A stretch of 35,759 bases of DNA from Deltaproteobacteria bacterium (GCA_003647435.1 QMMV01000001.1:1-35759), one strand, 5' to 3'. Positions 5,340 to 33,424 are shown, counted from the first letter of the stretch. Notes: a model not told the origin generated them from the sequence alone. Numbers and translations: made by a program.

Positions 5340-5354
5340 CTTTGCACCTCCTTA

Positions 5355-5759
5355 TTAAGACTTTGTTCGGCATTTGGATAAAATGCATTCGACCAATTCT
5401 AAAATTTCCTCTCTGCTCGATGAGTCCTTTGAGATAAAATAATTGGCACCGTATTGCTGTGCGGCCTGTCGATATTCCGGCAAGTCATAACTCGTCAGGA
5501 TGATAATGATAACGCTGGAATCATTTGCTCTTATTTTCTCTGTTAGCTTGAGGCCGCTTTCCCCGGGTAACTTGATGTCCATAAAGATGAGGTCAGGCCG
5601 GAAGGTATTGACCTTTTGTAAGGCCTCCTTTGCATCCGCTGCCTCCTCAATCACCATCAAGGGAAATCCTGTACACAAGATCCCTTTAAAGGATTGCCGA
5701 AAAGTGGCGTTGTCCTCGACAATTAATGTCCTAACATCCTGATTCACCCTACTCCTCAT
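5355..5759 (-). CDS. single-domain response regulator (CheY-like receiver)
   Basis: 134 aa. Has LIVEDN, phospho-acceptor context LIFMDIKLPG, and LTS...K receiver motifs. Confidence 0.88.
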   Translation of the reverse strand: MRSRVNQDVRTLIVEDNATFRQSFKGILCTGFPLMVIEEAADAKEALQKVNTFRPDLIFMDIKLPGESGLKLTEKIRANDSSVIIIILTSYDLPEYRQAAQQYGANYFISKDSSSREEILELVECILSKCRTKS

Positions 5760-6090
5760 GTTTGTACGGGTATAAATGCGATGGACCTGAATCTGTCATT
5801 TTGATCCTTTACCGAAGGATATCGACATGGTAAATAGGGTATATACTGTATTTAGGATGGTATTGGACTGTATTTGTAATGACGATGAGATGAGGGTGGG
5901 CAACAGCCCGGGGAAAAGCTATCATATGTCAAGCCTCCCATGGGTTGAACTGCAAAAGCGAGCGCTAACCCCGCAGCTTGCTGCAGGGAGCTTCAATGCT
6001 TTTTGAATACGGCTTATTCGTTTGACCGTATGATGCAAAAAAAAACAGCGAATCGTCATCGCCGAAGACTACACAATACTTAGAGAAGGA

Positions 6091-8001: not shown

Positions 8002-8120
8002 AAACAGAGAATGGACCTGTCTGCGTGTAACGCACAGGCAGGCGTGGGTTCGACCTGTCCCGCCATAGTTCCGCCGCTGCAGGACGACGGCGGATTCCCG
8101 CTGCCATATCAAACGCGGTG
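8002..8120 (+). repeat. structured repeat, copy A (palindromic element + conserved tail)
   Basis: Shares AAACAGAGAATGGA-CCTGYCTG..CAGGCAGG-CGTGGGTTCGACCTGTCCCGCC and the 3' block GGATTCCC..GCCATATCAAACGCGGTG with copy B at 11117-11231. The palindrome itself is at 8016-8042. Confidence 0.85.
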
Positions 8121-8279
8121 ATATCGTAACCCGAGCATGACATATGGACGATAAAGTAGTAATTATTATAACCCTATCTTGCCTTTTCGTCAAAACATTT
8201 TGGATTTGACTTGACATATGACCGATATAGAGCTAATTTTATTACTACCATGTTGGAAATGCGTCAAATGGGTCAGCCA

Positions 8280-11116: not shown

Positions 11117-11231
11117 AAACAGAGAATGGACCTGCCTGCGTGCGGTACGCACAGGCAGGCGTGGGTTCGACCTGTCCCGCCGAAGCCTGTCAGGGCGAAG
11201 GAGGATTCCCTCCGCCATATCAAACGCGGTG
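11117..11231 (+). repeat. structured repeat, copy B
   Basis: See copy A. The palindrome is at 11131-11159. It lies just 3' of, and antisense to, the DUF4236-TPR gene. Confidence 0.85.
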
Positions 11232-11261
11232 TTGTAATAATCCAAGTCTCCAGTTCCACGA

Positions 11262-17431: not shown

Positions 17432-19250
17432 TGTCGTCCTCCGTCGCCGGTTCGAAACGAGGGCGCAAGCACTTCATGGCCTCTGCGTCGTTAACGCCAA
17501 CAAGCAGCCCAAGGTCTCGCAAGCGCCGTTCAAGAACAGCTCGGTTCAATCGCAGCAGTTCGTTTGAAATCGCCATTCCCACCGGAGCCGTATCGACACA
17601 GAAACCATAGCGATCATGGAGTATCTCCAAAAAACTTTTGAGTGCCAGCGGCCGAGATCTAAGCCTTTTGCCTTTTTGCAGCACGTGTCGGTGAACCAAA
17701 TAGTCTAAAACCGAATCCGTAAAAACAAGTGAACGGATTTCGCGCGTCCTTCTCGTTCCGGCGCTCACGACTGCCCGTGTGACGCGTCTCTTGACGGCCA
17801 GTCCATTCGGACGTCCAATCAGTAATGCCGAGTCGATCATTGTGATCAGTCTCGATTGCGTATTCTTGCGTCCCTGTAGTGCCGTCAAAGCCTCTGCAAG
17901 ACGCCAGACCGGATTCGGCTGAACGTTTTCATCTCGCAGTAGTTGTGCGTGCTCGGGGTAATCCTCTTCCAATCTTTCGGCCAGTTCAGCGGCTTTACGA
18001 TCCAAATCATAGAGAATCGGTTCGGCTTCCTCGCGACGTTTGTGGAGCAAATCACCCAGCAGGTTCAACCACTCGGTCGCATACGGCCGGGTCTGAACAG
18101 GGAGTTTTTTGACCTTGGGGTCGTAGTGTGCCCAGCGATCGAGCAGGCGAAGGGCCATCAGGACAACCGGGAAGCGTTCGATACGACGCATGAAATCATC
18201 CATCGACTGCTCGGCAAGCTTTCTGAGGTCCCGATCCACACCATTGGAACAATCCACGAAGAGGGAGGCTTGGCTCTGGTTGCGTCTGTTTCGTATCTCG
18301 CCAGTATCTGCCCATTCGAATAGAAGTTCGATCACGCTAGTCAGAATCGTCGTCAACCCGACCGCCATGCACGATTCCAATAGTTCCACGAAACTGTGGC
18401 GGGGAATTAGTGTTGAGTAGGCGCGGACGAAATTCCGGATATCCTCGGAGAAATACCTGGCCGCTCGCTCGGCAATCGGCCGTTGATTCGAAATCTTGTC
18501 CCCCTCTTTGCCCCGCAATTTGTCCGGAGCCGCCCCCAGCTGTTGCGCCAGGCGAATCATGAGCAACTGGTCCAGGCCGACGGGCGTCTTTTCGGCAAAG
18601 TGATCGGACGTACGGCTACTTATCTCGCCCCGTCGCGTGATACCCTGATGGAAGGCACGCAGAAGAACATTTGCTTCGAAATCCCGGCCGACTGCGAACC
18701 ACGTGCGATCCCCTTCGCGATTTTGCTGTACGTACTCGCCATTCTGGTTGGCTAACATTGCGACGATCATTTCTGGTACATAGCGCAGGTTTGTGACGGC
18801 GTCGGGAAGATCTACCCAACTGGCCATATAATGGGCCGGGGCGACGCGCTGGACTTGCTCCGTTCTGCCAAGGGAGCGTTTGGCATTTTCGAGGCAGAAG
18901 CAGAGCAAGAGGTCACCGAGAATGGCTCGTTCGGTTTCACCGTCAAAGCCCTCGAACGCCTCCGCTTCGGCCAGTTTACCTGCTACACGTTCGATCGTTG
19001 CCGCCCGCCGGCGTTCTCGGGGCGTTCCTGCGGTTCCGCCAAATACATCCAGGAACCGCCCTTTGCCCCGCCGTTGGGCGAAACGAAACATGTAGAATAC
19101 AGCCGGCAACACAGCGGAGAGGTCAAAATCCTGGACCGACACAGGTAATGCCCTTTCGTAATTGCCTGTCCATATTTCACGCGTCATGCCACGCCCAAAC
19201 ACATCATCGACGATAGCGCGGGCGGTGGTGGCTCTCTGGGCGGGCTTCAT
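17418..19250 (-). CDS. 610-aa protein with no motif I recognise (occupies the DptG position)
   Basis: Long ORF with an ATGA start/stop overlap with the upstream gene and a 14-nt overlap with the downstream gene. A GGAGG SD lies inside the end of the upstream gene. Confidence 0.8.
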   Translation of the reverse strand: MKPAQRATTARAIVDDVFGRGMTREIWTGNYERALPVSVQDFDLSAVLPAVFYMFRFAQRRGKGRFLDVFGGTAGTPRERRRAATIERVAGKLAEAEAFEGFDGETERAILGDLLLCFCLENAKRSLGRTEQVQRVAPAHYMASWVDLPDAVTNLRYVPEMIVAMLANQNGEYVQQNREGDRTWFAVGRDFEANVLLRAFHQGITRRGEISSRTSDHFAEKTPVGLDQLLMIRLAQQLGAAPDKLRGKEGDKISNQRPIAERAARYFSEDIRNFVRAYSTLIPRHSFVELLESCMAVGLTTILTSVIELLFEWADTGEIRNRRNQSQASLFVDCSNGVDRDLRKLAEQSMDDFMRRIERFPVVLMALRLLDRWAHYDPKVKKLPVQTRPYATEWLNLLGDLLHKRREEAEPILYDLDRKAAELAERLEEDYPEHAQLLRDENVQPNPVWRLAEALTALQGRKNTQSRLITMIDSALLIGRPNGLAVKRRVTRAVVSAGTRRTREIRSLVFTDSVLDYLVHRHVLQKGKRLRSRPLALKSFLEILHDRYGFCVDTAPVGMAISNELLRLNRAVLERRLRDLGLLVGVNDAEAMKCLRPRFEPATEDDNAVV

Positions 19251-22200
19251 GGCTGACCTCCTAATGGAAGCGGCTTGAGGACAATCTGCTGCCGAGGACC
19301 TTCGGACCGCTCATCGATTTCGGCAAAGACCCTATAAATAGTCTCGTCTTGCATGGGATTCCATACGAGCAATTCGCGCTCGTCCTCACGAACAAGCCGC
19401 TGGACGAAAATCGAAAGGTTGGCGAACGTATCATCTGTCGATACGTCTCCTAACTGGTATCCGTCACTTAGCTCCAGAAGGAGGTGGAACAACTCAGCTC
19501 CCAATCGCAGGCGTTCTTCTCTACCGTCACGATAGCGATAGATCAGAAATGCGTGTCGGTGTAGTCGATCAATACCCTCCACTGCGGGTGGCAGGTCGGG
19601 TTCGATCCGAAAGGCGTCGAGCGGTTTTTCAACCCAGAATGCTGTCTCAGTGGGTGTTCGAGGCGTGATACGCAAAGGAACGACCCCTTCCCGATCCAGT
19701 GCCTGTGGGGGAAGGTCTTCAAGGCGCGAGATACCGGCGCAGAGACGATCACGCAAAGTCCGCAATTCGTCGGCCTCCTGTACAAGGGCCAGATTGCGGA
19801 AAAGCTGAAGATCCCTCCCGCGGGCAAGATCTAGCACACGAGGGTCGCCGACAATCTGTTCAATGTGCTCCTTGGTCCATTCAAAGTAGGCTCGGCGGCG
19901 CGCTGATTCCAGCGAAAGTCGCTCGTATCGCGGCGCTGTCTTCGTACTCTCTGCAAATGGTCTGCTTAATAGATAGCGGTCGATTTGCGGATGGGCCTCA
20001 AGAGCAGGATCGAATCGTGCCAGCTCTCGGAGGGCTTCTCCTTGGCGTCCAGGGGAGTATGACACAAACGCCCGATCCCAATATGGCAGCGGGGTAACAT
20101 CAGAGCCATCATGGTAATCATCGCAGAAATGGACACCGAATAGAATATAGACCAACGCAGCCCGCAGTTCGCGAATCGTAATGTGCGTTTCCCCACGCAA
20201 GTGCACAGCCTGCAACGCTTCGAATAACCGACGACGGGCACGCTGACGGGTACTCGGATCAACGGGCTCCGGCACGCCCTCCGGCCCGAAAACACGGGTA
20301 GCCCGAAATACTTCACATCGCTCCTTCGCGGAACATGACTGACATGGCCTCCAAATCGCCGACGTTTTGTCACCTCCATAGAGTTGATCCAGCAGCCGCT
20401 CGAGGAAGTCAGTCTGGATGACTTTCCGGTCAGACGTAACACCTCCTACCAGCGATCTTCCGTTGAGATCAATGAACCGGATGTGAGATTCCCGCTTGGT
20501 CTCTTCGGCTTGAAGAAGCTCATATAGTTCTTCAGTGAGTGCAGTTGTATTCCCGCCATTGTGCAGCTCTATTCCTTCGATCCATTCCAGCAGCCGGCCG
20601 TCATTGATGGCCAACAGATGCACGATGTCCTCGGTGGGAAGACCTTCCTGGAAGGGGGCGAGGAATTTGTCGAGGATCTCGTCAGCCGAACGTCCACGCC
20701 AGGCCGCTGAGCCATCCAGATTCATGCGGACAATCAAGCCGTCATCCATCCTGCCCTCGAGAAGGCGCTCCGACGACGGGTGCTCGCCAAACCCGAGTCG
20801 TGTTGCGAGGTGTTGAAGCAGTGCTGTCTTGCCATCACCAGCGTTCCCGCACAGGATCACCAACCGAACGCGCCGTTCTCGAATGTCATGTTCCAATGTC
20901 TCTTCAAGCCGGGTCTCAACATAAGTCTGCGCAGCAAACGGCGTGTCTAAACCTCGCGTCTCGCGGTTACCCCACCGGGAACCTGGGTAGGATTGAAGCA
21001 GTGAGCGCAGCCATTCTATCTTGTGCTCTCGCAGATCCTGTAATCTGGAAGGTTCCGTTTCCGTTGGTTTCTGCGGCAATTCCTCTTCCGGCTGCTCCTC
21101 CGCTGGCTGCGGCGTCGTTAGAGCGGCCAATGCTTCGGTTGCAGAAGAAAAACGCTGACTCGGTTCTGGGTAGGTTGCCTTGTCTATAAAAGCAGCAAGG
21201 ATCGGATATTCATTACGATTGATGCCTTCCCAGTTTACACCTCTTTCTTTGGCCAGCTCTCCGCCGTACCGGAAGGGCTCTCTGTCGAAGACGACGTGGA
21301 AGAAACTAGCTGCCAAAGCATAAATGTCATCCGAAGCGGAAGCTAGTCGACCCTCACCATAGGAAGGTGAGCAATATAGAACCGTGCCTGGGCCACGGAT
21401 GGGCTCGCCAATCTTGTTAACGAAATCATAATCGGTCAGGACAAGGTCGCTTCCGGAAACGATCATATTGCGCGGGCTGACGTCCCCATGTACGAGGCCA
21501 TTGCGATGAAGCACGTCCAGCGCTTCACACATGAGGTGCAACCACCGAGCGGCCAAGCCTTCACTCGACGTTTCCTGTTGGTCTTCGGCTAACAATGGAA
21601 ACACGCCGCTGAATTCACCCAGTGGGGTGCCATCGAGCCATGTCATGAGGGCGACAAACTCATTTACTCGCCATTCTCGCGCTACCTCGTAGATTGCCGA
21701 AAGGCCTGCGTGGCGACCAAGATGGGAGCGAGCCAAGCCATACGACTTCAGTACACGCTGGCCTACCTCCGCTTCGTGCGCTACTTTGGCAACGTACGTT
21801 CCAAGATCCTCCTTTGTCGATGACTCAATCTCAACAACCTTGAACGCTGTCCCCACGCCTCCCGAACCAAGACGTGAGACAATGCGGTAATCACGACCGT
21901 GGAAGCGTACCAGTTGGTCTTCCGTCCAAAACCTTGCCGGCGGTGCCGCAGGCGGCGGTACGGATTCGCCGAGGAGCTGGGAGAAAGACACCTCCAGATC
22001 CTTCAGCGTACAGCGCTCTTGTGGTTCCTCTGCAAGGCCCTTCGCGAGCGCTTCCAATGCGGCCACACTATCTTCATCGTGACGTTCCTGAAACAAAACG
22101 TTCAAAGAAGCGCACAGCGAATACACATCCGACCGTTGGTCGGCAGCGCCTAAGCCCTGTGTTCGAACCTCAGGAGCTATCGTCAATTTTTGTTCAAGCG

Positions 22201-23272
22201 GAATCTGCTTAGAAGCGACCGTCACCTGCGAAGGAATCTTCATGCGGTCAAAGCCGGTGAGGATCGGTGAGTTGTCGTGTTTCACGAGGACCGTGTGCGG
22301 AGTAAGATTGCGGTGGACGAACGGTTGATCCTCCGTCCCTTCGCCATGAAGTTCAGATATAGTACGAATAACGTTCCGCGCGAACGCCAATCGGCTCATC
22401 GTATCCCATGTATCATCTAACACACGTTCTGCGATACATGGTGCGGCAGGGTCGACCACGGTGAAAAAGAACATCTCGCCCGCGTATCCCGGGGCGCTCT
22501 GGTACGAATCAAGAATACGCGGTGCCCACGTATGCAGTTGAAGACGCTGTAGCGCCTCAAACTCACGTCTGGCTTTGGTCTCGGCATTCTTGTCATCGCT
22601 TGTAGACAGGTCGTAGAGGTGCAGAATCACGCGGTCCTGTCTGGCAGAGTGAACCCCTTTGTATATCCGGTGGAACCGTTCTTCCCTCGGCGTTTGCAGC
22701 TCCAGGTTGACGTAGCCTCCAAACCGCCTGAGAGACCCATCTATGGCCACTTTGCTCTTTGGAGCCAACAGCCGGCTTAATGAGTCTATTTGTAAAGCAG
22801 ATAATATCGTAGGTTTCTCAAGTCCGACTGCCTTCTTCCATCCATTCAACGTATGGAAGGAAACACCTCGTACAACTGTTTCAGCGAGTCGCTGGGCCTT
22901 GGATGACTCACGAGTCAGCAAGATCACGCCATCCACATACGGAAGCACCGGAACCTTTCTACGAAGCGTTGTTCCGAGCTTACGCGCCTTATTCGTGATT
23001 TTGTCGACCTCTTGCTCCACTTCGTCCCTGTGTTTGTCCACCCATTGCGAATCCCAGTGCTTGACCTCTATAACGCGTATTCCAGATGGGCTAATCGCAA
23101 CAATGTCAATCTCGTCGGACTGTAGCTGATGGTTTACAGAGAAGGCCAGATTCGTTAAAAGAATCCATTTCCCATCGCCGGGCGTAGATTGCAGACGGTT
23201 CTTTAAGAATTCAAACGCCTTTAGCTCGCTCTCGTTTGCTGCGGGGCCGCAGGGAATGATGGTTACTTGCAT
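19247..23272 (-). CDS. 1341-aa fusion: NERD nuclease-like domain + degenerate kinase + intact Ser/Thr-type kinase + P-loop NTPase/Cys-cluster module
   Basis: NERD: DEIDIVAISPSGIRVIEVKHW. Pseudokinase: HRNLTPHT, GFD, and no Gly-loop or Lys. Kinase: LGSGGVGTAF, YVAKV, HGDVSPRN, DYD. Walker A: ILCGNAGDGKTALL. Also LLAINDG and CQSCSAKERC. AAGGAG SD 8 nt upstream of the ATG. Confidence 0.88.
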   Translation of the reverse strand: MQVTIIPCGPAANESELKAFEFLKNRLQSTPGDGKWILLTNLAFSVNHQLQSDEIDIVAISPSGIRVIEVKHWDSQWVDKHRDEVEQEVDKITNKARKLGTTLRRKVPVLPYVDGVILLTRESSKAQRLAETVVRGVSFHTLNGWKKAVGLEKPTILSALQIDSLSRLLAPKSKVAIDGSLRRFGGYVNLELQTPREERFHRIYKGVHSARQDRVILHLYDLSTSDDKNAETKARREFEALQRLQLHTWAPRILDSYQSAPGYAGEMFFFTVVDPAAPCIAERVLDDTWDTMSRLAFARNVIRTISELHGEGTEDQPFVHRNLTPHTVLVKHDNSPILTGFDRMKIPSQVTVASKQIPLEQKLTIAPEVRTQGLGAADQRSDVYSLCASLNVLFQERHDEDSVAALEALAKGLAEEPQERCTLKDLEVSFSQLLGESVPPPAAPPARFWTEDQLVRFHGRDYRIVSRLGSGGVGTAFKVVEIESSTKEDLGTYVAKVAHEAEVGQRVLKSYGLARSHLGRHAGLSAIYEVAREWRVNEFVALMTWLDGTPLGEFSGVFPLLAEDQQETSSEGLAARWLHLMCEALDVLHRNGLVHGDVSPRNMIVSGSDLVLTDYDFVNKIGEPIRGPGTVLYCSPSYGEGRLASASDDIYALAASFFHVVFDREPFRYGGELAKERGVNWEGINRNEYPILAAFIDKATYPEPSQRFSSATEALAALTTPQPAEEQPEEELPQKPTETEPSRLQDLREHKIEWLRSLLQSYPGSRWGNRETRGLDTPFAAQTYVETRLEETLEHDIRERRVRLVILCGNAGDGKTALLQHLATRLGFGEHPSSERLLEGRMDDGLIVRMNLDGSAAWRGRSADEILDKFLAPFQEGLPTEDIVHLLAINDGRLLEWIEGIELHNGGNTTALTEELYELLQAEETKRESHIRFIDLNGRSLVGGVTSDRKVIQTDFLERLLDQLYGGDKTSAIWRPCQSCSAKERCEVFRATRVFGPEGVPEPVDPSTRQRARRRLFEALQAVHLRGETHITIRELRAALVYILFGVHFCDDYHDGSDVTPLPYWDRAFVSYSPGRQGEALRELARFDPALEAHPQIDRYLLSRPFAESTKTAPRYERLSLESARRRAYFEWTKEHIEQIVGDPRVLDLARGRDLQLFRNLALVQEADELRTLRDRLCAGISRLEDLPPQALDREGVVPLRITPRTPTETAFWVEKPLDAFRIEPDLPPAVEGIDRLHRHAFLIYRYRDGREERLRLGAELFHLLLELSDGYQLGDVSTDDTFANLSIFVQRLVREDERELLVWNPMQDETIYRVFAEIDERSEGPRQQIVLKPLPLGGQP

Positions 23273-23284
23273 CTCGCTATCTCC

Positions 23285-23755
23285 TTAAGGTTTCGCAGGT
23301 TCTTCCTGCGATTCGCCTGCTTGCTGCAACACGTGGATGGCGGTATCACGCATGTCCATTTTCACCATCCTACCACGTGGCCTTTCTTTAGAAGATAAAC
23401 CCATACGCAAGCGGCTTTCCCTGGCGTAAGCCGGATGTTTCTCATAAACGGTTTTGAGCAAGGTGTTGTGGTCGAGGACCGCGGCGACGTCGAACGCGGT
23501 GGAGATGCCCCGGCGAATTTCGAGGTTCGGCGCGATCACCAGAACACGGCCTTGGGCAATCTCGAAGGGCAGCAGCGCCATGAGGCCCGTCTTGCCGCAG
23601 CCCACCGGAATTTGAAGGATGGCGTGCTCGGAACTGTTCCGGAAATGCTGGCGCGTGCGGAACCATCCCTCCACCTGGGGATCGCGCAAGTCCGGGTTGC
23701 CCTGGATGAAAGCCCGGGTGTCGTTGAAGAACCTTGCTATTTCCTCATTTGTCAT
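23285..23755 (-). pseudogene. N-terminal stub of an SF2 (DEAD/DEAH or Res-type) helicase
   Basis: Motif I QIPVGCGKTG and Ia VLVIAPNLEIRRGI are present. There is no motif II or later, and the tail looks non-homologous. Its ATG overlaps the hsdR stop (ATGA). Confidence 0.6.
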
Positions 23756-26700
23756 ACCTTTTCTGCCCAATCTCGGCAAACGACTTCCGCCTGTTCCAGA
23801 ACAAGCTCCGTAGCGCGGGCCTGCTTATCAGGTGGATAGCCATACCGGCGAAGAATGCGTTTGACCATCACACGCATCTGTGCACGGACGTTCTCCCTGA
23901 CGGTCCAGTCGATGGTGACGTTATTCCGCACCGCACGAAGGAGTTCTTGTGCGATGATTCGAAGGGTTTCGTCCCCAAGAACCTTCACAGCGCTGTCGTT
24001 GACCTCCAGAGCATCGTAGAAGGCAATTTCATCTTCTGTAAGGCCAAGTTCTTCTCCGCGGGCGTCGGCCTCCCGTAGGTCTTTAGCGAGCGCGATCAAC
24101 TCTTCGATCACCTGAGCGGTTTCTATGGCCCGGTTCTGGTATCGCCGAATCGAGTTCTCGAGCATCTCGGAGAACGATCTCGCTTGAACGATATTCTTTC
24201 TTCCACGCGTCTTGATTTCGCCTTCCAGCAGCTTACGAAGCATCTCAACGGCTAGGTTCCGCTGTGGCAAACCTCGGATTTCTGCCAGGAACTCATCCGA
24301 CAGGATGGAGATATCCGGCCTCTTGAGTCCAGCCGCAGCGAAGATGTCGATGACTTCATCCGATGCCACTGCTTTCGATACGATCTGACGGATGGCGTGA
24401 TCGATTTCTTCCGGGCTACGCCGATCCACCCCGGCACTCTTGGTCAACACTGACTTCACGGCTTGGAAAAAGGCCACGTCGTCGCGAATTTCCAGGGCTT
24501 TCTCATGCGGTACAGCCAAAGCGAAAGCCTTAGAAAGCTCCGACACCGCCCTGGCCAGCCGATTCTTGCCGTCTTCCTGTTTAAGAACATGCTCCTGAGC
24601 TGCTGGTAGAATCACCAGGCGTTCTTGGGGGTCTCCATCAATCCAGGCAGACCATTCGAAACCGTGGAAGATGCCGCAGCAGACCTCGTATTTCTCCAGC
24701 ATCACGGCCACAGCTTCTTCCTGATCAACAGCGGTTCTGCCCTTGCCCCCACTCTCGGTGTAGGTCGCGAGCGCGGATTTCAACTCGTGAGCAAGGCCCA
24801 GATAGTCGACGACCAGACCGCCCGGTTTATCTTTGAAGACCCGGTTCACCCGGGCGATGGCCTGCATCAGGCCATGACCGCGCATGGGCTTGTCCATATA
24901 CATCGTATGCAGGCAGGGAACATCGAAACCGGTCAACCACATGTCCCTGACGATGACCATCTTGAACGGGTCCTCAGCGACCTTGAATCGCTTGGCAAGT
25001 TCTTCTCGTCTGGCCTTGTTGCGGATGTGCTGTTGCCACTCCACAGGGTCTGAAGCAGACCCCGTCATCACTACTTTCAGGCTTCCTTTGTCGTCGTCGC
25101 TATGGTGCCAGTCCGGCCGGAGCCGGGCGATGGCCTCGTAGAGCTCAACACAGATTCGGCGGCTCATGCAGACCACCATGGCCTTACCGTCCATCGCTTC
25201 AAGCCGGCGCTCAAAGTGATCGACTATGTCCTGGGCGATCAGCCGGATACGCTTCTCTGCACCGACGAGGGCCTCAAGTTGCGCCCACTTGGTTTTGAGC
25301 TTTTCTTTGTGCTCAACCTCTTCGCCTTCGGTGGCTTCTTCGAACTCCTCGTCGAGCTTTGGCCGTTCGGCCTCATCGAGTTCCAGCTTGGCGAGGCGAC
25401 TTTCATAATAGATCGGGACCGTGGCTCCATCCTTCACTGCCCGCTCGATGTCGTAGACGCTGACGTAATCTCCAAAAACGGCGCGGGTGTTCTTGTCCGT
25501 CAGCTCGATGGGCGTGCCGGTAAAACCAATGAAGGATGCGTTGGGCAGCGCCTCGCGCATGTGCCGCGCGAAGCCGTCGATAAAGTCGTATTGGCTGCGG
25601 TGGGCTTCGTCGGCGATCACCACGATATTGCGCCGATCCGACAAAAGGGGATGCTGGTCTTCTCCCTCGGTGGGAAAAAACTTGTGGACCGTCGTGAATA
25701 CCACGCCCCCTGATCCCGTGTGCAACAATTCCCGCAGATGCGCCCGGCTTTGTGCCTGCTCGGGTTGTTGCCGGAGAAGTTCATGGCAGCGCGCGAACGT
25801 CCCGAATAACTGGTCGTCCAGGTCGTTGCGGTCAGTGATGATAACCAGCGTCGGGTTCTCCATCGCCGGGTGGAGCACGACACGTCCGGCATAGAACGCC
25901 ATGGTCAGGCTTTTCCCTGATCCCTGAGTGTGCCACACCACACCAACTCGCTTGTCCCCGCCGGCTCCAGCCGCCCGAACGGTCGAATCCAGCGCCAGGT
26001 TCACCGCGTGGTACTGGTGATACCCGGCCATCTTCTTGACCAGCACACCGCCGCCTGTGTCCTCGAACACGATGAAATGCCGGACCAAGTCCAGGAATCG
26101 CCGTTTCTCGAACACACCCTCCAGTACTACCTGGAGCTGCGGCAGTTTGTCGTCCGCCAGTTCCTCACCCTCGATTGTCCGCCAGGGCATGAACCATTCC
26201 CGGTCGGACGTCAGCGTCCCGATCCGGGCCTGTACGCCGTCGGATATCACCAGCGCTTCGTTAAACGCGAAGAGCCGTGGTATCTGCTCTTTGTAGGTCT
26301 GAAACTGGTTGAACGCCGACCAGATGGTCGCGCTCTCGGTGGCCGCATTTTTCAGCTCGATCACCGCCAACGGAAGGCCGTTGACGAACAGCACTACGTC
26401 AGGACGACGCTCATGCCGATCCTCGACAACGGTGAACTGATTGACCGCCAGAAACTCGTTGTTCTCCGGCATGTCGTAGTCCAGCACGCGAACGAGGTCG
26501 CCGCCGATGGAGCCGCCTGCCTGCCGCGCCCGTCCAGCAGCGATCTCACGTTTCAGCCATGTTCGACCATATCCGGTCTTGAGCCATTTCTCGCGTTCCA
26601 CCGCCTTCTCGCGCGATTCGTGCTCTTCGTAGTATTCTATACAGACAGGTCTGTGTTTCCGAGTGTGTTCCGCAGCCGTCCCCGCTAAATGTTCACGCCA

Positions 26701-27114
26701 ACGCCGCTCCAGATATTCTGTTTGTCCTATGTAGATGCTGTCATCATCACACCGTATCGCATAAACGAAAAAACAGCCGGGACGCGGCGCAGGCAGGTCA
26801 GCCCGCTGGTACTCGACGGGAACGCCATCGACCAGGTACTTGTGTATGAGGTGGTTATTCGCCACGAGCGTTGGCATGTCCGGTCGAGTCAGCTTGCGGA
26901 ACGCCTCTTCCAGGGCGTCGGCCGGCACCTGGGGATTGAGCCGCTGGAGCGCCTGACGCAAGCGCGATTCCAGAATCACTTGTTCATAATCTTCACGCTC
27001 AGCCGCCGGTTCTCCCGGGGCGATCTCCGGCCCGGACAGGATGGTGTAATCTAGCGCCTCCAGCCAGGCGAGGGCGGCTTGTTCAACCGTGGTTTCGGCG
27101 AACGATCCACTCAT
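23752..27114 (-). CDS. hsdR: Type I restriction enzyme R subunit, carrying an in-frame GIY-YIG insertion
   Basis: HsdR N-terminus. Nuclease motif [19 protein letters not shown]. Helicase motifs [19 protein letters not shown] and FTGTP. Conserved C-terminal domain. Confidence 0.95.
26516..26797 (-). mobile_element. 282-bp palindrome-bounded GIY-YIG cassette inserted in frame in hsdR
   Basis: Bounded by CCTGCCTG (26516-26523) and CAGGCAGG (26790-26797), with further imperfect inverted repeat inside those ends. Encodes 94 codons including FFVYAI..IYIGQT..RRWREH..EREKWLK. Confidence 0.8.
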
Positions 27115-28106
27115 GCTTTTGCCCCGTATTTATCCACGTTTAATTGGCAATGCTTGCGTACTTCTTCGACCCAGCGTTCATACCAATGCCAATGCTTCCC
27201 AGCAACCTTAGTTCCGTAACCTTTCCCTGGTTTTTTTGCATCAAGTTGTTTCCATAATTGAGTGTGGTAGTGCATCGAGAACTTAGGAAAGCCTTCCTTA
27301 CGCATCAGTTCGACAATTTGGCCAGGTAAATACTTTGGTTTTTCCGTTTCTTTGATTACTGTGTATTCAGCATTTATTGTTTCTGCGAGTGAGGAATCGC
27401 TTTTTACAAATTCAATGACTTGGTCTGCTTGTCCTTTTCGGTTAGCCGTTTTGGCTACGAACAACACTCGATAGGCGAACCGGGGACTATTGAATTCCTC
27501 ATCCGTCAACTTGCCCTCAAAGCCATCGATGAATGCCTTGATGTGCGAAGGCATTTTGCTGGGCGACGGCAACGCCGCAACCTGCTCGCGCGAGATAGAT
27601 GAAAACTGAAGGCTGAATGCCAGATGCTTGTCGATGCCAAACTTTTCGCCAAACAGCTTCTTCACGTACTCGTTGTAGTTCAGGCAGCACGCCTGAAACT
27701 TCGCGCTGAGAGAAGAGTCAAGCCGAGACGTCATCTGATGCTCTATTTCATGGCGGATACCGATCAGAAAGCGCAGGTTGTTGGCGGTGTCTTTGTCGAT
27801 CGGGGACTGCTGATCGTTCAGACAACGTTCCAACTCCCAGTGCTTGTGCGCTCCAGACTTTGTCTTGTCGAAAATGCGCCTCTTCGCCCGTTGCTGGTAG
27901 TATCGGTACTCAATGTGGTGCTTTCGATAGTACGCATGGAGAAGGTACGTCCACGCAATGTTCATCAATACAATGAAGATCTCCGACTTGAACGTGATCA
28001 ACGGGTTGTTGAAAATCTGGACCGCAGCTAGAGCCGCCTCACGGGATTTCGTGAGCAGTTCACCTGAAACAGAGTAGATCCGTCTGACTCGTGGGGATTT
28101 AGCCAT
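27111..28106 (-). CDS. DUF3644-like protein embedded in the Type I R-M operon
   Basis: 331 aa. [37 protein letters not shown] resembles the DUF3644 N-terminus (from memory). Stop/start overlaps with both hsdS and hsdR. Markedly lower GC than its neighbours. Confidence 0.65.
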
Positions 28107-29446
28107 CAGATACACCTCCCGACGATCCGCTCCGCATCCAGCAAACGCAACTCGCCGGAAATGAGCCTGGGAAGAAGAGTGTCGCGGATAGCTGCGAGGG
28201 TACGGGATTGTTCCATCGCAACTCTGATCCGGTGAAAAATGGGCGCCACAATCTTGCTGAACTCATGAAACAACAAAGAGTCGATGTCGGGCGTTGGGAG
28301 AGTATATTTGCCAAGGCTGTCTGCTGGTACGCGTTGCCGCCCGCTCGTACCAGTCATTTGTTGGATGGCGAAAGTCCGGAATCTTTCCGTCCGGGCTAGC
28401 AGGTACGCGAAGACCGGAGGGATCGCCCCGGTTGGCCTAAGCACGATATACTCCGTTGACCCCCAGCCAACTTCCCCTTCTCCAAGGAAGTCGACGAATG
28501 CCGTTTTGCCATTTTCGAGACAGGGGGTGATCCGGGCAACCAACGTATCGCCGTTGATGAACTTCATTCCTGATCCCACCTCCCGCAATACCCATGATTC
28601 GGGAGCTGGCCCCTTCGTCGGCATATCAGCCATGCTGAGGTACGGTGCTAGTGAGCCTTTCGACAATGACCGAGGAGGGTTGATCTGAAAGACTTCGGGT
28701 AACGAACGTACCTCCCACCCCTTCGGAATCTCCCCCAGCTCCGAGTCCACGAAGGCATCGGGGAACAGGTCGGCGATGTGGGGTGCGAGGCCGCCTGCCT
28801 GTGCCGTGCCCGGCACGGCAGACAGGGGGGGCTGTTGGCCTTCTGCCTTGGCGCGGACGGGGTCGAAGTCGACGAACCAGCTCTTGAAGATCGCCCGGGC
28901 CATCGCCTCCAGCGTCTCGTTCATCCGCCGGTTCAACTCGATCTTGTCATCCAGCGCTCCCAGGATGCAAGCAATGGCGCGTTGCTCGGGAAGTGGCGGA
29001 AGATCAACTTCGAGGTGAGTCAAAGCGTTCGTTGGAACACGTTGACGACCGGAGCTTCCGGTCATCTGTGAGATGGCATACTGCCGCACTCCATCCCATC
29101 GCGTGAGATAGTAAGCAAAGTTGTTGTCCGTCACGTCGGGCTTGCCGCGAATGACGATGAACTCCGTCGATCCATGGCCCATTGGCTGGTTGTCGGGTGC
29201 GGCAAAGCGAGCGATCTTGCCGTTTTCCAAGCACGGCGTGATTCGCGCCATTAACGTGTCACCGTTCATGAAGCGTGAGCCGCCGCCCTTGAACTCTCGC
29301 ATCTCGCTGGGTCCAACGCTCCGAGATGCCGGGTCCACTGCCTTCATATCGACGAAAGGATAGACCTCGCCGCGTTCAAGCAGAACGCGTGGGTTGATCT
29401 GGACTGCTTCGTCAAGCGGCATGGTTGTCCACTCGTCATTCGCCAT
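28106..29446 (-). CDS. hsdS: Type I restriction specificity subunit (two TRDs)
   Basis: Duplicated TRD architecture, with [11 protein letters not shown] and [13 protein letters not shown] each present twice. Central and C-terminal conserved helices, ending [12 protein letters not shown]. Confidence 0.93.
28794..28826 (-). repeat. 33-bp palindromic element, in frame in the hsdS central conserved region
   Basis: CCTGCCTGTGCCGTGCCCGGCACGGCAGACAGG. Encodes [11 protein letters not shown]. Identical to the copy at 31658-31690. Confidence 0.9.
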
Positions 29447-31061
29447 AGCCGATGTCCTCCAGATTGGCCCAGATGATCTGGTCGAGCTTGGCTGACTGCT
29501 CCGTCTGCTCGCGCAGGGCGACGGTCAGGCGGGCCATCTTCTCTTCGAACGGCTCGCCGTCATCTTCCACCTCGGCCGCGCCGACATAGCGGCCGGGGGT
29601 AAGGATGTGGTGGTGTTTACGGATGTCCTCGATAGTCGCGGCCTTACAAAAGCCTGGAATGTCTTCGTACTGCTTGTCACAATCCTTGTCGCCACGCCAG
29701 GCGTGGTAGGTGTCGGCGACCCGGCGGATGTCGTCTTCGGTGAGTTCGCGATGAACCCGGTCGATCATGGTGCCGAGCTTCCGCGCGTCGATGAACAGCG
29801 TCTCGCCGCGCCGGTCGCGGAAACGCCTGCCTGCCGCGCCAGCGGCGCAGGCAGGGCCGTTCTTCTTGTCCCTGGCAATGAACCAGAGGCAGACGGGAAT
29901 CTGCGTCGAATAGAAGAGCTGGCCGGGAAGCGCCACCATGCAGTCCACCAGGTCGGCCTCGATGATGTTCTTGCGGATTTCTCCCTCGCCGGACTGGTTG
30001 GAGGACATCGAGCCGTTGGCCAGAACGAAGCCGGCCAGACCGGTCGGGGCCAGATGGTGGATGAAGTGCTGTACCCAGGCGAAGTTGGCGTTGGATGTTG
30101 GCGGTGTCCCGTACTTCCAGCGCTTATCGTCCTTGAGCAGGTCGCCGCGCCAATCGCTGTCGTTGAAGGGCGGATTGGCGAGGACATAATCGGCTTTGAG
30201 GTCGGGATGCAGGTCGTGATGGAAGCTGTCGGCGTGTTCCTTCCCGAGGTTGTTCTCTATCTGCCGGATGGCGAGGTTCATCTTCGCCAGCCGCCAGGTG
30301 GTATGGTTGGACTCCTGGCCAAAGATGCTGACGTGGGCCTTTGCTTTGCCCCCGTTGCCTGTCTGCGTGCCACGCACAGGCAGGCCGTTGCCTGTCGCAT
30401 GCGCCCTGACGAACTCAACCGATTGGACGAACATGCCGCCGGAACCGCAGCACGGATCGTACACCCGGCCCTTGTAGGGCGCGAGCATTTCAACCAGCAG
30501 GCGGACGACGCAACGAGGCGTGTAGAACTGGCCGCCTTTCTTGCCCTCGGCGCTGGCGAACTGCGACAGGAAGTATTCATACACCCGGCCGAGGATGTCC
30601 TTGGTGCGGTTTTCCTTGTCGCCCAGTCCGATGTTGCCGACAAGGTCGATGAGCTGGCCGAGACGCTGCTTGTCGAGGCGCGGGTGCGCGTAGTCCTTGG
30701 GCAGTACACCCTTGAGCGAAGGGTTGTCGCGCTCGATGGCCAGCATGGCGTCGTCGACGACCTTGCCGATGGTGGGTTGCTTCGCGTTGGCCTTGAGGTG
30801 CGACCAGCGGGCTTGCTTGGGCACCCAGAAGATATTGACGGCCCGGTACTCGTCGGGGTCCTCCGGATCTGCTCCCTGGGCCTGCTCGGCTACGAGCTTG
30901 GCGTGCTGCTCCTCGAAGGCGTCGGAGATGTATTTGAGGAAAATCAGACCGAGTACGACGTGCTTGTACTCGGCGGCGTCCATGTTGGAGCGGAGCGCGT
31001 CGGCGGCCTGCCACAATTCCCGTTCGAAACCGAGGTTGGCTCCGTTGTTGTTCTTGGCCAT
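29436..31061 (-). CDS. hsdM: Type I N6-adenine DNA methyltransferase subunit
   Basis: HsdM N-terminal domain ([32 protein letters not shown]), SAM motif DPCCGSGGM, and catalytic NPPF. The start MAKNNNG at 31061 has a GGAGAGGAG SD; the track start at 31115 overlaps the HTH gene. Confidence 0.95.
29826..29855 (+). repeat. 30-bp palindromic element, in frame in hsdM
   Basis: CCTGCCTGCCGCGCCAGCGGCGCAGGCAGG. Read on the minus strand it encodes [10 protein letters not shown]. Confidence 0.85.
30358..30384 (+). repeat. 27-bp palindromic element, in frame in hsdM
   Basis: CCTGTCTGCGTGCCACGCACAGGCAGG. It differs from the 8016-8042 copy only in two loop bases. Read on the minus strand it encodes LPVRGTQT. 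Confidence 0.9.
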
Positions 31062-31062
31062 G

Positions 31063-31305
31063 TCAGATCTCCTCTCCGCCAAAGTATTCCTGTAGAAGGT
31101 CGTTGCCTCGTTCACCCAGGTCCCGGAGCAAGTCCTCGATCTGCTTCAGCGCCAATGGCGACGGCTTGGCGCGGCCGTTCTCCCACCGGTTGATGGTTGG
31201 GTAGGTCACACCGAGCTTGGCCGCGAATTTTTCCTGGGTGAGCCCCGTTCGTTCGCGAAGCTCACGGACTAATCGGGATATGTCAGGCTGGGCATTCAAG
31301 GTCAT
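31063..31305 (-). CDS. XRE-family HTH protein, controller (C-protein)-like, first gene of the R-M operon
   Basis: 80 aa. [29 protein letters not shown] is a classic Cro/C1 HTH. Its stop is 1 nt from the hsdM ATG. Confidence 0.9.
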
Positions 31306-31366
31306 TCTCCTTTCAGATCCGACAGGGACCTGATCGAAACAAAGTTCATATCACGCGCCCCAACAG

Positions 31367-31401
31367 ATGATATATCATACAATAAAGGGGAGAAATGTCA
31401 A
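31367..31401 (-). promoter_or_regulatory. sigma70-type promoter with overlapping palindromic operator
   Basis: Minus strand reads TTGACA (31401-31396), 16 nt, TATGAT (31379-31374). A perfect 12-bp palindrome ATGATATATCAT (31367-31378) overlaps the -10. An AAGGAGA SD precedes the HTH ATG. Confidence 0.7.
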
Positions 31402-31449
31402 GCGGGATTTCTGTCCGGAAATTCTCTGGGCTGGAAATGACTTATGATT

Positions 31450-31947
31450 TCAGCGCCAGGTCCCGCCGAAAAGCTCCCTGAAACTCCTTATGGAGCGATC
31501 CCCGACCACATAGAGCCAGGCTGGAAGAACGGCTCCACCGGCCCATACCGGGACCAGGACACGGCGGTAAAGGTAGAAACCGCCCGGGTGGAAGCCCTCG
31601 AGGCGGTCGATGGCGGGAAGGCGGGACTCGGGGTCGCCGAAGGTGAGAAGCTCCCCGCCTGCCTGTGCCGTGCCCGGCACGGCAGACAGGTACACAGGGC
31701 CACAGTCGCCCGCTGTGGCGCTTTCCGGGGCTGGCTCGAGGATGGATGCCAGGTCCTCGGCAAAGCGCGCCTGTGCCTGCCTGTGCGTGTCCGCACGCAG
31801 ACAGGTGGCCACGTCGGCGAGCGGGTCGGCGGTGCCGTGGGCCAGGATGTCCGTCTCGGGCACCTCCAGGACGGGGATGCCGGATGGCCGCCCTATCCGT
31901 CGCTTGCGGAGGCATTGCGAGTTCGCCGGTTCTGGCGACACCCACAA
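31450..31947 (-). CDS. gamma-glutamylcyclotransferase (AIG2/GGCT)-like protein with two in-frame palindrome insertions; start uncertain
   Basis: The C-terminal half, ELLTFGDPESRLPAIDRLEGF..YRRVLVPV..PAWLYVV, fits the GGCT family pattern. The N-terminus is atypical. An overlapping plus-strand ORF was judged spurious. Confidence 0.55.
   Translation of the reverse strand: MWVSPEPANSQCLRKRRIGRPSGIPVLEVPETDILAHGTADPLADVATCLRADTHRQAQARFAEDLASILEPAPESATAGDCGPVYLSAVPGTAQAGGELLTFGDPESRLPAIDRLEGFHPGGFYLYRRVLVPVWAGGAVLPAWLYVVGDRSIRSFRELFGGTWR
31658..31690 (-). repeat. 33-bp palindromic element, in frame in the GGCT-like ORF
   Basis: Identical to the 28794-28826 copy. Encodes [11 protein letters not shown] in the same element frame. 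Confidence 0.9.
31776..31805 (-). repeat. 30-bp palindromic element, in frame in the GGCT-like ORF
   Basis: CCTGCCTGTGCGTGTCCGCACGCAGACAGG. Encodes CLRADTHRQ in a different element frame from the 33-bp copies. Confidence 0.85.
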
Positions 31948-32003
31948 CGACCTCCACTCTGCGGCCAGTCTGTTGTCTGGTGACTGACGTTCAGGCCCGG
32001 GCC

Positions 32004-32336
32004 CTATGCCCGGACCGCCTCTTCCACGCTCATGCGGAACGGGAGCCCGTGCTTGATCTCGAGGATCTCCACCGTTTCGTCGCCGAGGCGGCTGAGGTGT
32101 GCGAAGAACTCCACCGCCTGGGCCTTCAGGGCGAAGTCGTCCGACCCGAGCTCACGTCTCGGGCCGTTTTCTCCGCCGAACTTGATCTCGCGCACCACGC
32201 GCGGGGGCGGGTCGAGCACCGGCTCGCCGCCGCGCACGGCCAGCCCCTCGATCCGCCCGAAGTTGATCTCCTACATCAGCTCCAGCAGGCGTCTCCGCGC
32301 AGGAGTGAGGGACGCCTTGGTCGTCACTTCGCTCAT
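32004..32336 (-). pseudogene. small conserved-looking ORF interrupted by an in-frame TAG
   Basis: AAAGGAGG SD, then ATG at 32336 and MSEVTTKASLTPARRRLLELM, then TAG (32273-32271), then EINFGRIEGLAVRGGEPVLDPPPRVVREIKFGGENGPRREL... in the same frame down to 32004. Confidence 0.6.
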
Positions 32337-32369
32337 TCCGGACCTCCTTTCCGCGCCGCACGGCGCGAA

Positions 32370-33424
32370 CTAAAAAGCCCCCCTGGGAGGGAGGTCCGGC
32401 GGGGATTCCTCCCAGGGGGGCAACCACCTGGTCTCCCTTTTCGCTGGCAGGGTGCGGCCCCTGGCTTCGAATGCAGCGAAGACGTCCGAAGCCTTGCGGA
32501 TCTCGATTTCGTTCTCCGATCCGCCCCAGAAGAAATGGATCTCCTTCAGCTTGATCCATTCCATTCCGTCCACGTCCGTGCAGACCAAGGCGGCCGGCCC
32601 ATCGGTCCTCAGCGGCTCGAGCGTGTATTCCCCCGTGCCGGAGAAGAAGTCCTCGCCGCCGAAAAGATGCAGGCCGAATTTCCTGCGGTAAAGGTCCTTC
32701 TCCCACTTCGATGCCGCGTTGATCCGCAGCTCACCAATGGAGGGTTCGTAGACCAGGACGTCGTGTTTCTCCGGCCGGTAGAACACGTTCGTCGACTGGC
32801 CGGCCTCGAGGCTGCCTTCCCGCTTGTAAGGCTCCCCGTGCCGGACAAGAAACCAGATGGCATCTTTCTTCGGGTAGACGAAAACGCGGGAGCCGCGACC
32901 GCGCTTCTTCTTCTCGAACAGATCGTTCAGGTCGTCTTGCAGGGCGACCAGTGTCTTTGCGGTGGGATTCTTGAATGCAGGGACAGGCGAAGTCTCGGTC
33001 TGGAAGTATTCGAAAGAGCGGGGACGGGTCAGGTATTGCTCGGCGTGCTTACGCTCGAGAAGGTCCCTGTCATGGAGCCAGACCTGGACGGCGACATCGG
33101 CGGGCGTAGGGTCGGGGTTGCCGTCCAGGTGATGCCGTTCCGTTCCGCCTCGTGCAGCAGTTCATCCATGCCCTCAGGAGTCGCCATTTCGTGGATGAAG
33201 TACAACGCATCCGCCAATTCCTTGGGCGTGTCGCTGTCCGGAGTCATGAAGACCTGGACGATCCCTTCGTAGTCGAGCCCGTCCGCTTGGCCTGGTGGTG
33301 GCAACGATACGCCTCGGCCGTTGAAGAAGGCTGCGTGAGGTTGCAGGAGAGCGATCAAGTGCTCCTCCGCGATAGCCTTCAAACCATCAGGATGGGAAAA
33401 CCGCCGAAGGTTGTACGTCGCCAT
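32370..33424 (-). pseudogene. hypothetical protein of about 350 aa, split by one frameshift near 33105-33125
   Basis: The N-terminal 100 codons run from 33424. My hand translation shows a second frame open from about 33110 to 32370 (LDGNPDPTPADVAVQVW...FYRPEKHDVLVYEP...). No family recognised. Confidence 0.6.

Follow-up and report, generated by a model that had tools for sequence, protein, structure and literature searches.

Short in-frame palindromes of bacterial genes as probable miniature relatives of a 282-bp element encoding a GIY-YIG nuclease

Palindromic repeats lying within protein genes were reported as Rickettsia palindromic elements (RPEs; Ogata et al. 2000), which are about 105-146 bp long and occur in Rickettsia only (PMC3184786). 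Repetitive extragenic palindromes (REPs), recognised by their GTAG/CGTC heads, are presented as extragenic sequences whose partner, the REP-associated tyrosine transposase (RAYT), belongs to the Y1/HUH type, stands free and is in most cases a single-copy gene inherited vertically (PMC3116915, PMC3733652). A further precedent concerns HsdR of Methylococcus capsulatus (MCA0838), where an Slx1-like GIY-YIG insert was noticed at about position 800 and found missing from an 80%-identical homologue; its authors called the insert unique and proposed a recent insertion, with possible parasitism (Dunin-Horkawicz et al. 2006, PMC1564403). The present study deals with a 35,759-nucleotide stretch of a Deltaproteobacteria bacterium (GCA_003647435.1, QMMV01000001.1:1-35759; hereafter the window), where 27-33-bp palindromes were found within hsdS, hsdM and a GGACT-like open reading frame (ORF), and a 282-bp relative encoding a GIY-YIG nuclease domain within hsdR. 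We consider it probable that these palindromes belong, as miniature forms without coding capacity, to a family of mobile elements whose complete member (282 or 285 bp) encodes this nuclease.

The pattern CCTGYCTG-N(8-24)-CAGRCAGG matched seven times in the window, against 0.00 matches expected from 100 dinucleotide-preserving shuffles, and the half-motif alone was about ten-fold in excess (22 matches against 2.2 expected). All seven copies had been located at the same coordinates in a preliminary description made from the sequence alone. Five of them lay within genes, all in minus-strand ORFs. The one in hsdS (33 bp, 28794..28826, + strand, TG-bulge type) occupied the central conserved region, where it added 11 residues. 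Two were carried by hsdM, namely a 30-bp copy of the CG-bulge type (29826..29855, - strand) adding 10 residues and a 27-bp copy (30358..30384, - strand) adding (G)LPVRGTQT(G). The last two resided in the GGACT-like ORF: a 33-bp copy of the hsdS palindrome (31658..31690, + strand), identical to it across 36 nt and adding the same 11 residues, and a 30-bp one (31776..31805, + strand) adding CLRADTHRQA. Translation yielded the inserted peptides that had been given for these copies. Likewise, it was borne out that the five lengths (33, 30, 27, 33 and 30 bp) are multiples of 3, that no stop codon occurs in any of the six frames, that two 33-bp copies are identical and that different frames, in fact all three, are represented, as are both orientations when these are told apart by the side on which the 2-nt bulge lies. 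The two remaining copies were intergenic and located within a repeat of about 125 nt. One of them (27 bp, 8016..8042, - strand) contained a TAA and formed the tip of a longer hairpin in the first repeat copy (8002-8121); the other (11131..11159, - strand, in the repeat copy 11117-11233) was 29 bp long, which is not a multiple of 3.

Folded as single-stranded DNA, the copies adopted a structure in which a 2-nt bulge separates the 8-bp outer stem from the inner stem-loop, with energies from -6.7 to -13.6 kcal/mol and z-scores down to -3.7. Such stable folds, and the fact that two copies form the tip of a longer intergenic repeat that is itself structured, might be expected of hairpins that the host selects for a function (mRNA stability, attenuation, recombination or a protein loop). 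This explanation is largely refuted, as is that of chance or assembly artefacts, and both are given a very low probability here: presence and absence varied among near-identical orthologues at many sites and in many frames, the same sequences appeared in unrelated genes and phyla, chance predicts 0 copies, and the copies came from different assemblers, including complete long-read chromosomes of metagenome-assembled genomes (MAGs).

Direct evidence of insertion was obtained from orthologues (58-94% identity), in which four of the five inserts were missing at the nucleotide or protein level. The hsdM gene of L322, 91% identical in nucleotides to that of the window, displayed an empty site for the 30-bp copy (AAGAACGGC^CGTTTC) as well as for the 27-bp copy (GGCAACGG^CAATGGG, also empty in L323). 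In both cases, the insert corresponded to the exact palindrome and there was no target site duplication. A 12-nt direct repeat at the 27-bp copy, which could have passed for such a duplication, was rejected on the basis of the empty sites in L322 and L323, which showed native GGC-AAC-GGC-AAY codons, the remainder being the palindrome end. Among 120 HsdM orthologues (81-94% identity, modal length of 522 aa), the 30-bp insert was missing from 116 and the 27-bp insert was found in the window only. As for the GGACT-like ORF, the site of its 33-bp copy was empty in L271 (GPVY^GELLTF) and in 63 of 65 homologues, 2 of the 65 carrying an 11-aa insert, while the 30-bp insert was shared by only 10 of them (CLRA[D/E/V]THRQA, for a consensus DVAT^QARF). 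The consensus of these homologues was devoid of both window inserts, and three other sites were occupied by other short palindromes. No empty-site orthologue was found for the hsdS copy; L322, the sole orthologue compared, carries a different 36-bp palindrome a few codons away. In this hsdS (4562-5878, beside the hsdM encoding P0160), two short central inserts were recorded, LPVRAKQRARTQTG at FVDF^DPVRAKA and LPAASRVAAQAG.

At least 12 independent insertions of short palindromes, at no fewer than 8 sites, were counted among the 120 HsdM orthologues, one of which carried the long form. The peptides added by the palindromes included LPASGLRQAG, LPAPRLRQAG, SALPAATHR, PACAGQGAAGR, LPAPRTLRQAG, LSACNAQAG, LPAPELRRAG, LSAYDAQAG and ACLCVSARRQ. 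The sites clustered in stretches that also vary by other indels. An AlphaFold2 model of HsdM built from the shallow alignment of these 120 proteins was unusable (mean predicted local distance difference test score of 38.9), and the assignment to loops rests on the indel-variable stretches only. As they leave the reading frame intact, both short and long forms persist in such variable protein stretches.

Other insert families had also settled at these hsdM hot spots (core positions 393-395 and 438-444 of alignment A7). P0184, an HsdM, contains a DUF559 (Vsr-like endonuclease) domain between ...PLPGGEG... and ...PSPTGRGAGGEG..., flanked by Gly/Pro-rich peptides, and further peptides at these hot spots were SPLTGEGKGG, SPRPRAGDGQ and HASPL(HASPL). 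Together, the DUF559 insert and the short peptides suggest a second, analogous system combining a nuclease with short repeats, and the P0184 insert hints that the strategy of in-frame nuclease insertion may be general.

The key to the palindrome family is the form carried by hsdR (1120 aa, 23752..27114, - strand), which the preliminary description had termed a cargo form and left unidentified. It is real and encodes a GIY-YIG nuclease domain. The full-length element (282 bp, 26516..26797, - strand) splits the HSDR_N domain and is bordered by imperfect terminal inverted repeats, with CCTGCCTG-CG-CCGCG... at the left end and ...CGCGG-CAGGCAGG at the right end. The boundaries of the insert, CCTGCCTGCGCCGC... 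and ...GCGCGGCAGGCAGG, recur as both 14-nt arms of the hsdM palindrome of 30 bp; in other words, the latter (29826) consists of the left 14 nt of the hsdR element, TG and its right 14 nt. Read in the host frame as D-[LPAPRPG ... AGRARQAG]-G, the element contains neither start nor stop codon, and HsdR residues 115-183 matched the GIY-YIG domain (PF01541, E 1.9e-16). The nearest solved structures were those of UPF0213 proteins, both stand-alone (1YWL, E 3.7e-14; 1ZG2, E 1.2e-13). The GIY, YIG, Arg, His and Glu positions were nearly invariant in 115 representatives, and the embedded nuclease is probably active. The complete member is thus a unit without start, stop or promoter of its own, in which imperfect inverted ends of about 20 bp surround a single UPF0213-type domain. 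As judged from sequence, its sole means of expression would be translational read-through, which makes it a domain inside the host protein. The corresponding empty site was found in L323, where HsdR reads EYQRKD^GSIGG (AAG GA^C GGT) in place of GA[CCTG...282 bp...CAGG]C GGC in the window, again with no target site duplication. Long and short forms alike insert precisely, from CCTG... to ...CAGG, without duplicating their target.

Homologues of the 97-aa segment were all bracketed by DLPAPRP and ARQAG and lay within fragments of unrelated proteins, the first ones being the HsdM C-terminus, MsrB, EcoEI_R_C, HsdR and DUF899. A genome scan limited to one genome per species uncovered 126 relatives, of which the best 80 loci were analysed, all from MAGs. 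They were distributed among at least 15 phyla, including Acidobacteriota, many lineages of the candidate phyla radiation (CPR/Patescibacteria), Planctomycetota, Desulfobacterota, Nitrospirota, Verrucomicrobiota, Bacteroidota, Bipolaricaulota, Omnitrophota and Nitrospinota; Gamma- and Zetaproteobacteria as well as Leptospiraceae were further carriers. In almost all 80 loci, the frame remained open on both sides of the module for tens to about 1000 codons. Among 61 elements with recognisable ends, 44 measured exactly 282 bp and 12 measured 285 bp; 60 were multiples of 3, the sole exception (281 bp) containing a stop codon. RNA-level removal and ribosomal bypass were also considered for these inserts; the strict frame on both sides and the multiple-of-3 bias argue for translation instead.

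When the representatives of 1.84 billion protein clusters (50% identity) were searched with a profile, 153 matched at E<=1e-30 and 3301 at E<=1e-10, and nearly all of the best 150 were internal, in proteins of 100-1100 aa. Host clusters were dominated by HsdS (60 of 115 representatives). Other hosts of the long form were HsdM, HsdR, Type III and Eco57I methylases, DUF1156, MsrB, pseudouridine synthase, trigger factor, TatD, QueC, TrmD, the arginyl-tRNA synthetase ArgRS and Ogt. The HsdS of a Zetaproteobacteria MAG (L043 10001-10666, P0012) even contained two GIY-YIG modules in its central conserved region, about 30 residues apart and respectively 61% and 55% identical to the window module. Beside the main subfamily, a second nuclease subfamily was distinguished by ...ARTQTG ends and a degenerate left end. 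A third one was encountered in Bacteroidota MAGs (L065, L068, L079 and L081), where a complete short palindrome stood directly upstream, about 40 nt before the GIY-YIG match; one of these palindromes, CCTGTCTGCGTGCGGACACGCACAGGCAG, agrees at 29 of 30 positions with window 31776-31805 read as its reverse complement. A corresponding right end could not be recognised in this third subfamily.

The extremities of the long form turned out to be its most constrained part at silent positions. Across 42 distinct 282-bp elements, whose GC content ranged from 38% to 61%, third codon positions held 1.51 bits of information in the first five codons and 1.72 in the last five, against 0.42 in the interior, where four-fold sites of invariant residues were close to 0 bits. 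Pairing of the two ends was examined with an 18-pair structure (successive stems of 8, 5 and 5 bp, the first two separated by a 5' CG bulge and the last two by a 4-nt 3' bulge), in which 93.1% of the cells were paired; when the 3' partners were slid by 1-3 columns, this fell to merely 28-50%. Double-sided changes affected 31 cells, for 8.9 +/- 3.3 in shuffles, none of 500 shuffles reaching as high a value. For instance, the third positions of the Arg codon of 'PRP' and of the Gly codon of 'AGR', some 250 nt apart, formed GC in 17 elements, AU in 8, CG in 5, UA in 3, GU in 3 and other combinations in 6. From this covariation and the proportion of paired cells it follows that the two ends are selected to pair: they are frozen at synonymous sites and kept complementary by compensatory change.

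A clear preference was also observed at the insertion sites of the long form. The flanks of the 61 elements showed G at -2 (89%), A at -1 (82%), C or T at +1, G at +2 (69%) and G or A at +3 (85%), and the target is therefore GA^YGR, with the insertion point between a purine and a pyrimidine and most often at Asp|Gly or Asp|Glu. Several conserved sites of Type I restriction-modification genes were hit recurrently, in phyla unrelated to one another: LVPQDPND^EPASVLLE in HsdS (9 loci), a site in HsdM (6 loci) and VEYxRx^GSIxG in HsdR (3 loci). The window hsdM itself retains an unoccupied target (GAT GA^C GGC, EVEDD^GEPFEEKM; 29556..29564, - strand), at which a full-length element was present in six other genomes and in P0271. 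Elements could moreover be far more similar than their surroundings. Between L057 and L058, paralogous hosts in the same MAG, the element was 94.7% identical and the flanks 65% and 56%; between L060 (Planctomycetota) and L064 (Nitrospira), the values were 89% for the element and 70% and 47.5% for the flanks. Conversely, at one hsdM site where the hosts were 79% identical upstream (48% downstream), the occupying elements were only 64% identical. Taken together, these observations bear the signature of repeated, homing-like invasion.

Short forms were searched beyond the window with a stricter pattern (CCTGCCTGYGC-N-GCAGRCAGG), which was found on at least 120 metagenome contigs; the generic CCTGYCTG-N-CAGRCAGG was too loose for database scans, and its matches in viral contigs, mostly unrelated hairpins, served as control. 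A length multiple of 3 was recorded for 113 of the 133 palindromes (85%) among the metagenome matches listed, where 27, 30 and 33 bp dominated. In the window and the loci selected for the nuclease, 41 of 45 palindromes followed the same rule, the exceptions being intergenic or composite. The control was unbiased, its lengths modulo 3 being distributed as 53/47/32. The bias was present in two independent samples. Lengths ranged overall from 21 to 42 bp. Within long ORFs, all six frame/orientation classes were represented among the metagenome matches listed, each by 6 to 20 copies. Taken together, the empty sites, the multiple-of-3 bias and these six classes support what the preliminary description had proposed, namely in-frame, protein-tolerated and selfish palindromic insertions. 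The observations it had named beforehand as speaking against this (the same peptides without palindromic DNA in orthologues of unrelated lineages, no length bias in genes, a motif frequency explained by base composition) were not encountered.

Hosts of the short forms were diverse (FtsZ, Ddl, Nuo/Mrp, the gas-vesicle protein GvpL/F, a capsid protein, two-component proteins, methylases, ResIII and HsdR). A concentration in a defence island, also put forward initially, holds strongly for the nuclease form, given its preponderance in HsdS, and only mildly for the short ones. Another initial view, that of freely variable inner hairpins, had to be abandoned, as a few types recurred identically in unrelated metagenomes: CCTGCCTGTGCGTTGCACGCAGACAGG was found at least 12 times and CCTGCCTGCGCCGAGGCTTCGGCAGGCAGG at least 6 times in different samples, and the 30-mer of 31776-31805 was identical in at least 7 metagenome contigs and one viral contig.

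Several features connect the short forms to the long one. The 8-bp outer stem is common to both, as are the 2-nt bulge and the inner stem. Two main types of short form could be distinguished by their bulge: the CG-bulge type matches the main long-form ends, whereas the TG-bulge type ends in CAGACAGG and matches the second nuclease subfamily. Besides, 38 short forms were present in 20 of the 80 loci, which had been picked solely for carrying the nuclease, and at some loci they were nested in long forms or adjoined them. The densest co-occurrence was noted on an 8,845-bp metagenome contig (L259, Ga0190315_1001658), which contained six short palindromes and one full-length module.

This kinship might also be read in another way, the short forms being mere by-products of the long one, left by internal deletion, by abortive copying between complementary ends or as scars, with no mobility of their own. 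The composition of the 30-bp hsdM palindrome out of the two extremities of the hsdR element is suggestive in this respect, and the hot spots of short forms coincide with long-form sites or regions, e.g. the hsdM C-terminal region and the HsdS central conserved region, which is a multiple-hit hot spot; loop sequences, furthermore, vary while stems are conserved. Decay in situ cannot, however, explain why short forms are found in six frame/orientation classes and long forms in one, and identical 27- and 30-mers, loops included, recurred in unrelated contigs and genes, as if the short form itself had been copied. We hold this explanation to be quite improbable.

If the palindromes are instead miniature members of the nuclease-encoding family, a mechanism can be proposed as follows. 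The paired ends would form a bulged DNA stem (hairpin or cruciform) acting as a cis site. Either this stem or empty GA^YGR sites would be nicked or cleaved by the embedded nuclease, a relative of structure-specific Slx1-type enzymes, and host repair or replication would then copy the element in, which amounts to homing in the case of the long form. Short forms, reduced to the stem, would be propagated in trans; their mobilisation by the nuclease is an inference. A structure at the DNA rather than the mRNA level appears likelier, since short forms occur in both orientations relative to transcription and since the conserved T.G / C.A asymmetry of the TG-bulge type puts the wobble on the strand equivalent to the long form's antisense. 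Multiples of 3 would dominate because only frame-preserving lineages survive in gene-dense genomes. Lineage selection would be the best explanation of this rule, as hairpin geometry would vary in steps of 1 or 2 nt rather than 3, and other lengths are possible, as attested by intergenic copies of 29 and 20 bp.

A number of observations weigh against this interpretation. Short forms did not share the GA preference of the long form, the TG-bulge type favouring G^C/T and the CG-bulge type showing little preference. The commonest of them (TG bulge, CAGACAGG end) matched the second subfamily, i.e. the one whose left end is degenerate. Multiples of 3 also dominated outside long open frames (50 of 60 short forms among the metagenome matches listed), for which lineage selection may account. 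The long form was present on only 1 of the 120 contigs listed that carry short ones, which has little weight either way as these contigs are short. In addition, all 80 genome loci belonged to MAGs, and the plasmid and phage collections contained no member, only stand-alone UPF0213 proteins without LPAPRP/RQAG ends. Finally, GIY-YIG enzymes hydrolyse DNA and, to our knowledge, are not known to perform strand transfer, so that the spread of short forms to non-homologous sites requires an extra joining step.

Some of these points would fit better with the hairpin as primary mobile unit, moved by an unlinked enzyme (of the host, or an IS200/RAYT-like single-strand transposase) and the GIY-YIG module as a passenger that at one time settled in its loop and does not drive mobility. 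Short forms indeed far outnumber long ones and mostly occur on contigs without them, the flank preferences of the two differ, as far as we know strand transfer is foreign to GIY-YIG enzymes, and precise insertion without duplication, at a short motif and with hairpin ends, is reminiscent of single-strand transposition of the IS200/IS605 type. On the other hand, strong purifying selection acts on the nuclease across no fewer than 15 phyla, its catalytic positions being nearly invariant, and its 282-bp architecture is fixed. The return of the long form to conserved homologous sites, with elements more similar than their flanks, is homing-like and typical of an active endonuclease, and no transposase was found beside the elements in the window. 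The unlinked-enzyme explanation is therefore regarded as unlikely, though less so than that of by-products, and a family built around the nuclease remains our preferred interpretation.

In the window, the host genes of the short forms are hsdS (446 aa, 28106..29446, - strand), hsdM (541 aa in the public record, 29436..31064, - strand) and the GGACT/AIG2-like ORF (31450..31947, - strand). The latter had been introduced as a GGCT-like gene with two copies of the palindrome; the copies are indeed there, and the gene is not intact. It is devoid of the N-terminal 55 or so residues (YGTLKRG; LRLFVYGTLKRG...) conserved in 64 homologues and, as no upstream frame encodes them, what remains is a gene truncated at its 5' end. 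At 31450-31947, the gene called in the public record (ENA contig) runs on the opposite strand. The defence island (12359-31305, - strand) comprises a helix-turn-helix gene, Type I M (MTase_I) and S (Specificity_I) genes, a DUF3644 gene (PADLOC PDC-S19 candidate) and the R gene (REase_I), then genes for a 1341-aa protein joining NERD and protein kinase domains (MkoA/mad6/SspF-like), a mad7/SspG-like protein (610 aa) and a DndH/mad8-like NTPase (1690 aa). The whole couples a Type I restriction-modification system to a DndFGH/SspFGH/MADS-like module. A small ORF (23285-23779, - strand) overlapping the 3' end of hsdR, for which the public record gives a 156-aa product with a ResIII match, may be what is left of a different helicase or R subunit.

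The two copies of the intergenic repeat of about 125 nt were 80% identical. In each, the palindrome occupies the tip of a longer hairpin (ACAG...GGACC / GGGTTC...CTGT), followed by two more hairpins with compensatory differences between the copies and by a conserved tail, CCATATCAAACGCGGTG. An AbiEi-like gene lies downstream of one copy, while the other adjoins a gene combining DUF4236 and tetratricopeptide repeats. The repeat had no Rfam match under E-value thresholds, and its motifs were absent from all other loci examined; Rfam at gathering thresholds on the whole window and a tRNA scan revealed nothing relevant. Two overlapping inverted repeats were also noted at 32338-32421, one imperfect and the other perfect over 14 nt (GCCCCCCTGGGAGG / CCTCCCAGGGGGGC, arms 17 nt apart), in a GC-rich stretch without Pfam-recognisable gene (32000-33400).

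Beyond this locus, the results have practical consequences. The inserts inflate and fragment metagenomic protein families, as illustrated by pieces of HsdS, HsdM or MsrB labelled 'GIY-YIG nuclease family protein'. They also mark sites where proteins naturally tolerate insertions and provide presence/absence markers for the horizontal transfer of defence systems. The long form prefers conserved sites of Type I restriction-modification genes, which themselves move between phyla.

Among known systems, RPEs are functionally the most similar, being in-frame palindromic repeats of protein genes that are translated, tolerated and regarded as selfish. The parallel drawn with them in the preliminary description stands in this functional sense and fails as to sequence, size and taxon: the present repeats are much shorter, occur in many phyla and have a nuclease-encoding relative, and RPEs are unrelated to them in sequence. 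No autonomous partner of RPEs is known to us. The family described here would thus tie in-frame palindromic repeats, whose mobility has lacked an explanation since RPEs, to an identifiable nuclease of about 94 aa, which is testable.

REPs and their REPIN/RAYT systems likewise associate short GC-rich hairpins, presumed to be the cis site, with a protein gene flanked by inverted repeats. They differ from the present family in three respects. Five of the seven window copies, and most copies elsewhere, lie inside long ORFs; the ends are CCTG...CAGG with no GTAG/CGTC tetranucleotide; and the repeat-flanked protein is a GIY-YIG domain embedded in host proteins and spread horizontally, not a Y1/HUH transposase. 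MITEs, the miniature inverted-repeat transposable elements, resemble the short forms by their terminal inverted repeats and by the larger protein-coding relative sharing them. In contrast with MITEs, filled sites set against empty ones revealed no target site duplication, and the parent encodes only a hydrolytic nuclease of the GIY-YIG type, without transposase.

The absence of target site duplication, structured ends, a short target motif and short non-autonomous derivatives are shared with insertion sequences of the IS200/IS605 family. These encode a Y1/HUH transposase that has expression signals of its own, and neither end is an inverted repeat of the other. No Y1/HUH TnpA was found in the element or in the neighbouring window genes, and we know of no IS200/IS605 member that is translated in frame with host genes.

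Inteins bearing a homing endonuclease also reside in frame at conserved sites, express the endonuclease through the host ORF and invade in a homing-like manner. Yet, an intein was rejected as an interpretation, for there is neither Hint domain nor junction residues: the 94 aa hold PF01541 only, the junctions are D|LPAPRP and RQAG|G, and the insert stays in the protein. The element further differs by having inverted-repeat ends and by its miniature derivatives. It follows a different route of persistence from inteins and introns, remaining in frame and in the protein without splicing. With GIY-YIG homing endonucleases such as I-TevI and Seg, it shares the catalytic motifs, the recurrent occupation of the same sites and a similarity greater than that of the flanks. 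These enzymes possess a C-terminal DNA-binding domain and have their own ORF or reside in an intron, whereas the module of about 94 aa is reduced to a catalytic domain of about 80 aa, with no DNA-binding domain and no ORF or intron of its own; the NCBIfam model of group I intron endonucleases gave it 22 bits for a cut-off of 56.

At the sequence level, the nuclease is similar to UPF0213/COG2827 proteins (YhbQ-like, 'Slx1 cluster'). The MCA0838 insert is the nearest case on record, compared here through its published description; inverted ends, frame rule, target, short forms and spread are not described there. Apart from this 2006 HsdR case, the literature covered, to which subscription journals mostly do not belong, contained nothing on such ends, on a frame rule, on miniature derivatives or on how widely they occur. 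A cross-phylum, in-frame GIY-YIG element with hairpin derivatives is apparently undescribed. It is tempting, if still rather speculative, to view it as a new class of prokaryotic mobile elements: a 282-bp in-frame unit without promoter or start codon, in which a bare GIY-YIG domain and bulged hairpin ends would serve for homing and transposition, and which would have spawned coding hairpins of 21-42 bp across phyla. If so, it would be the first DNA element driven by a GIY-YIG nuclease to have MITE-like derivatives, and the first autonomous partner of RPE-like in-frame palindromes.

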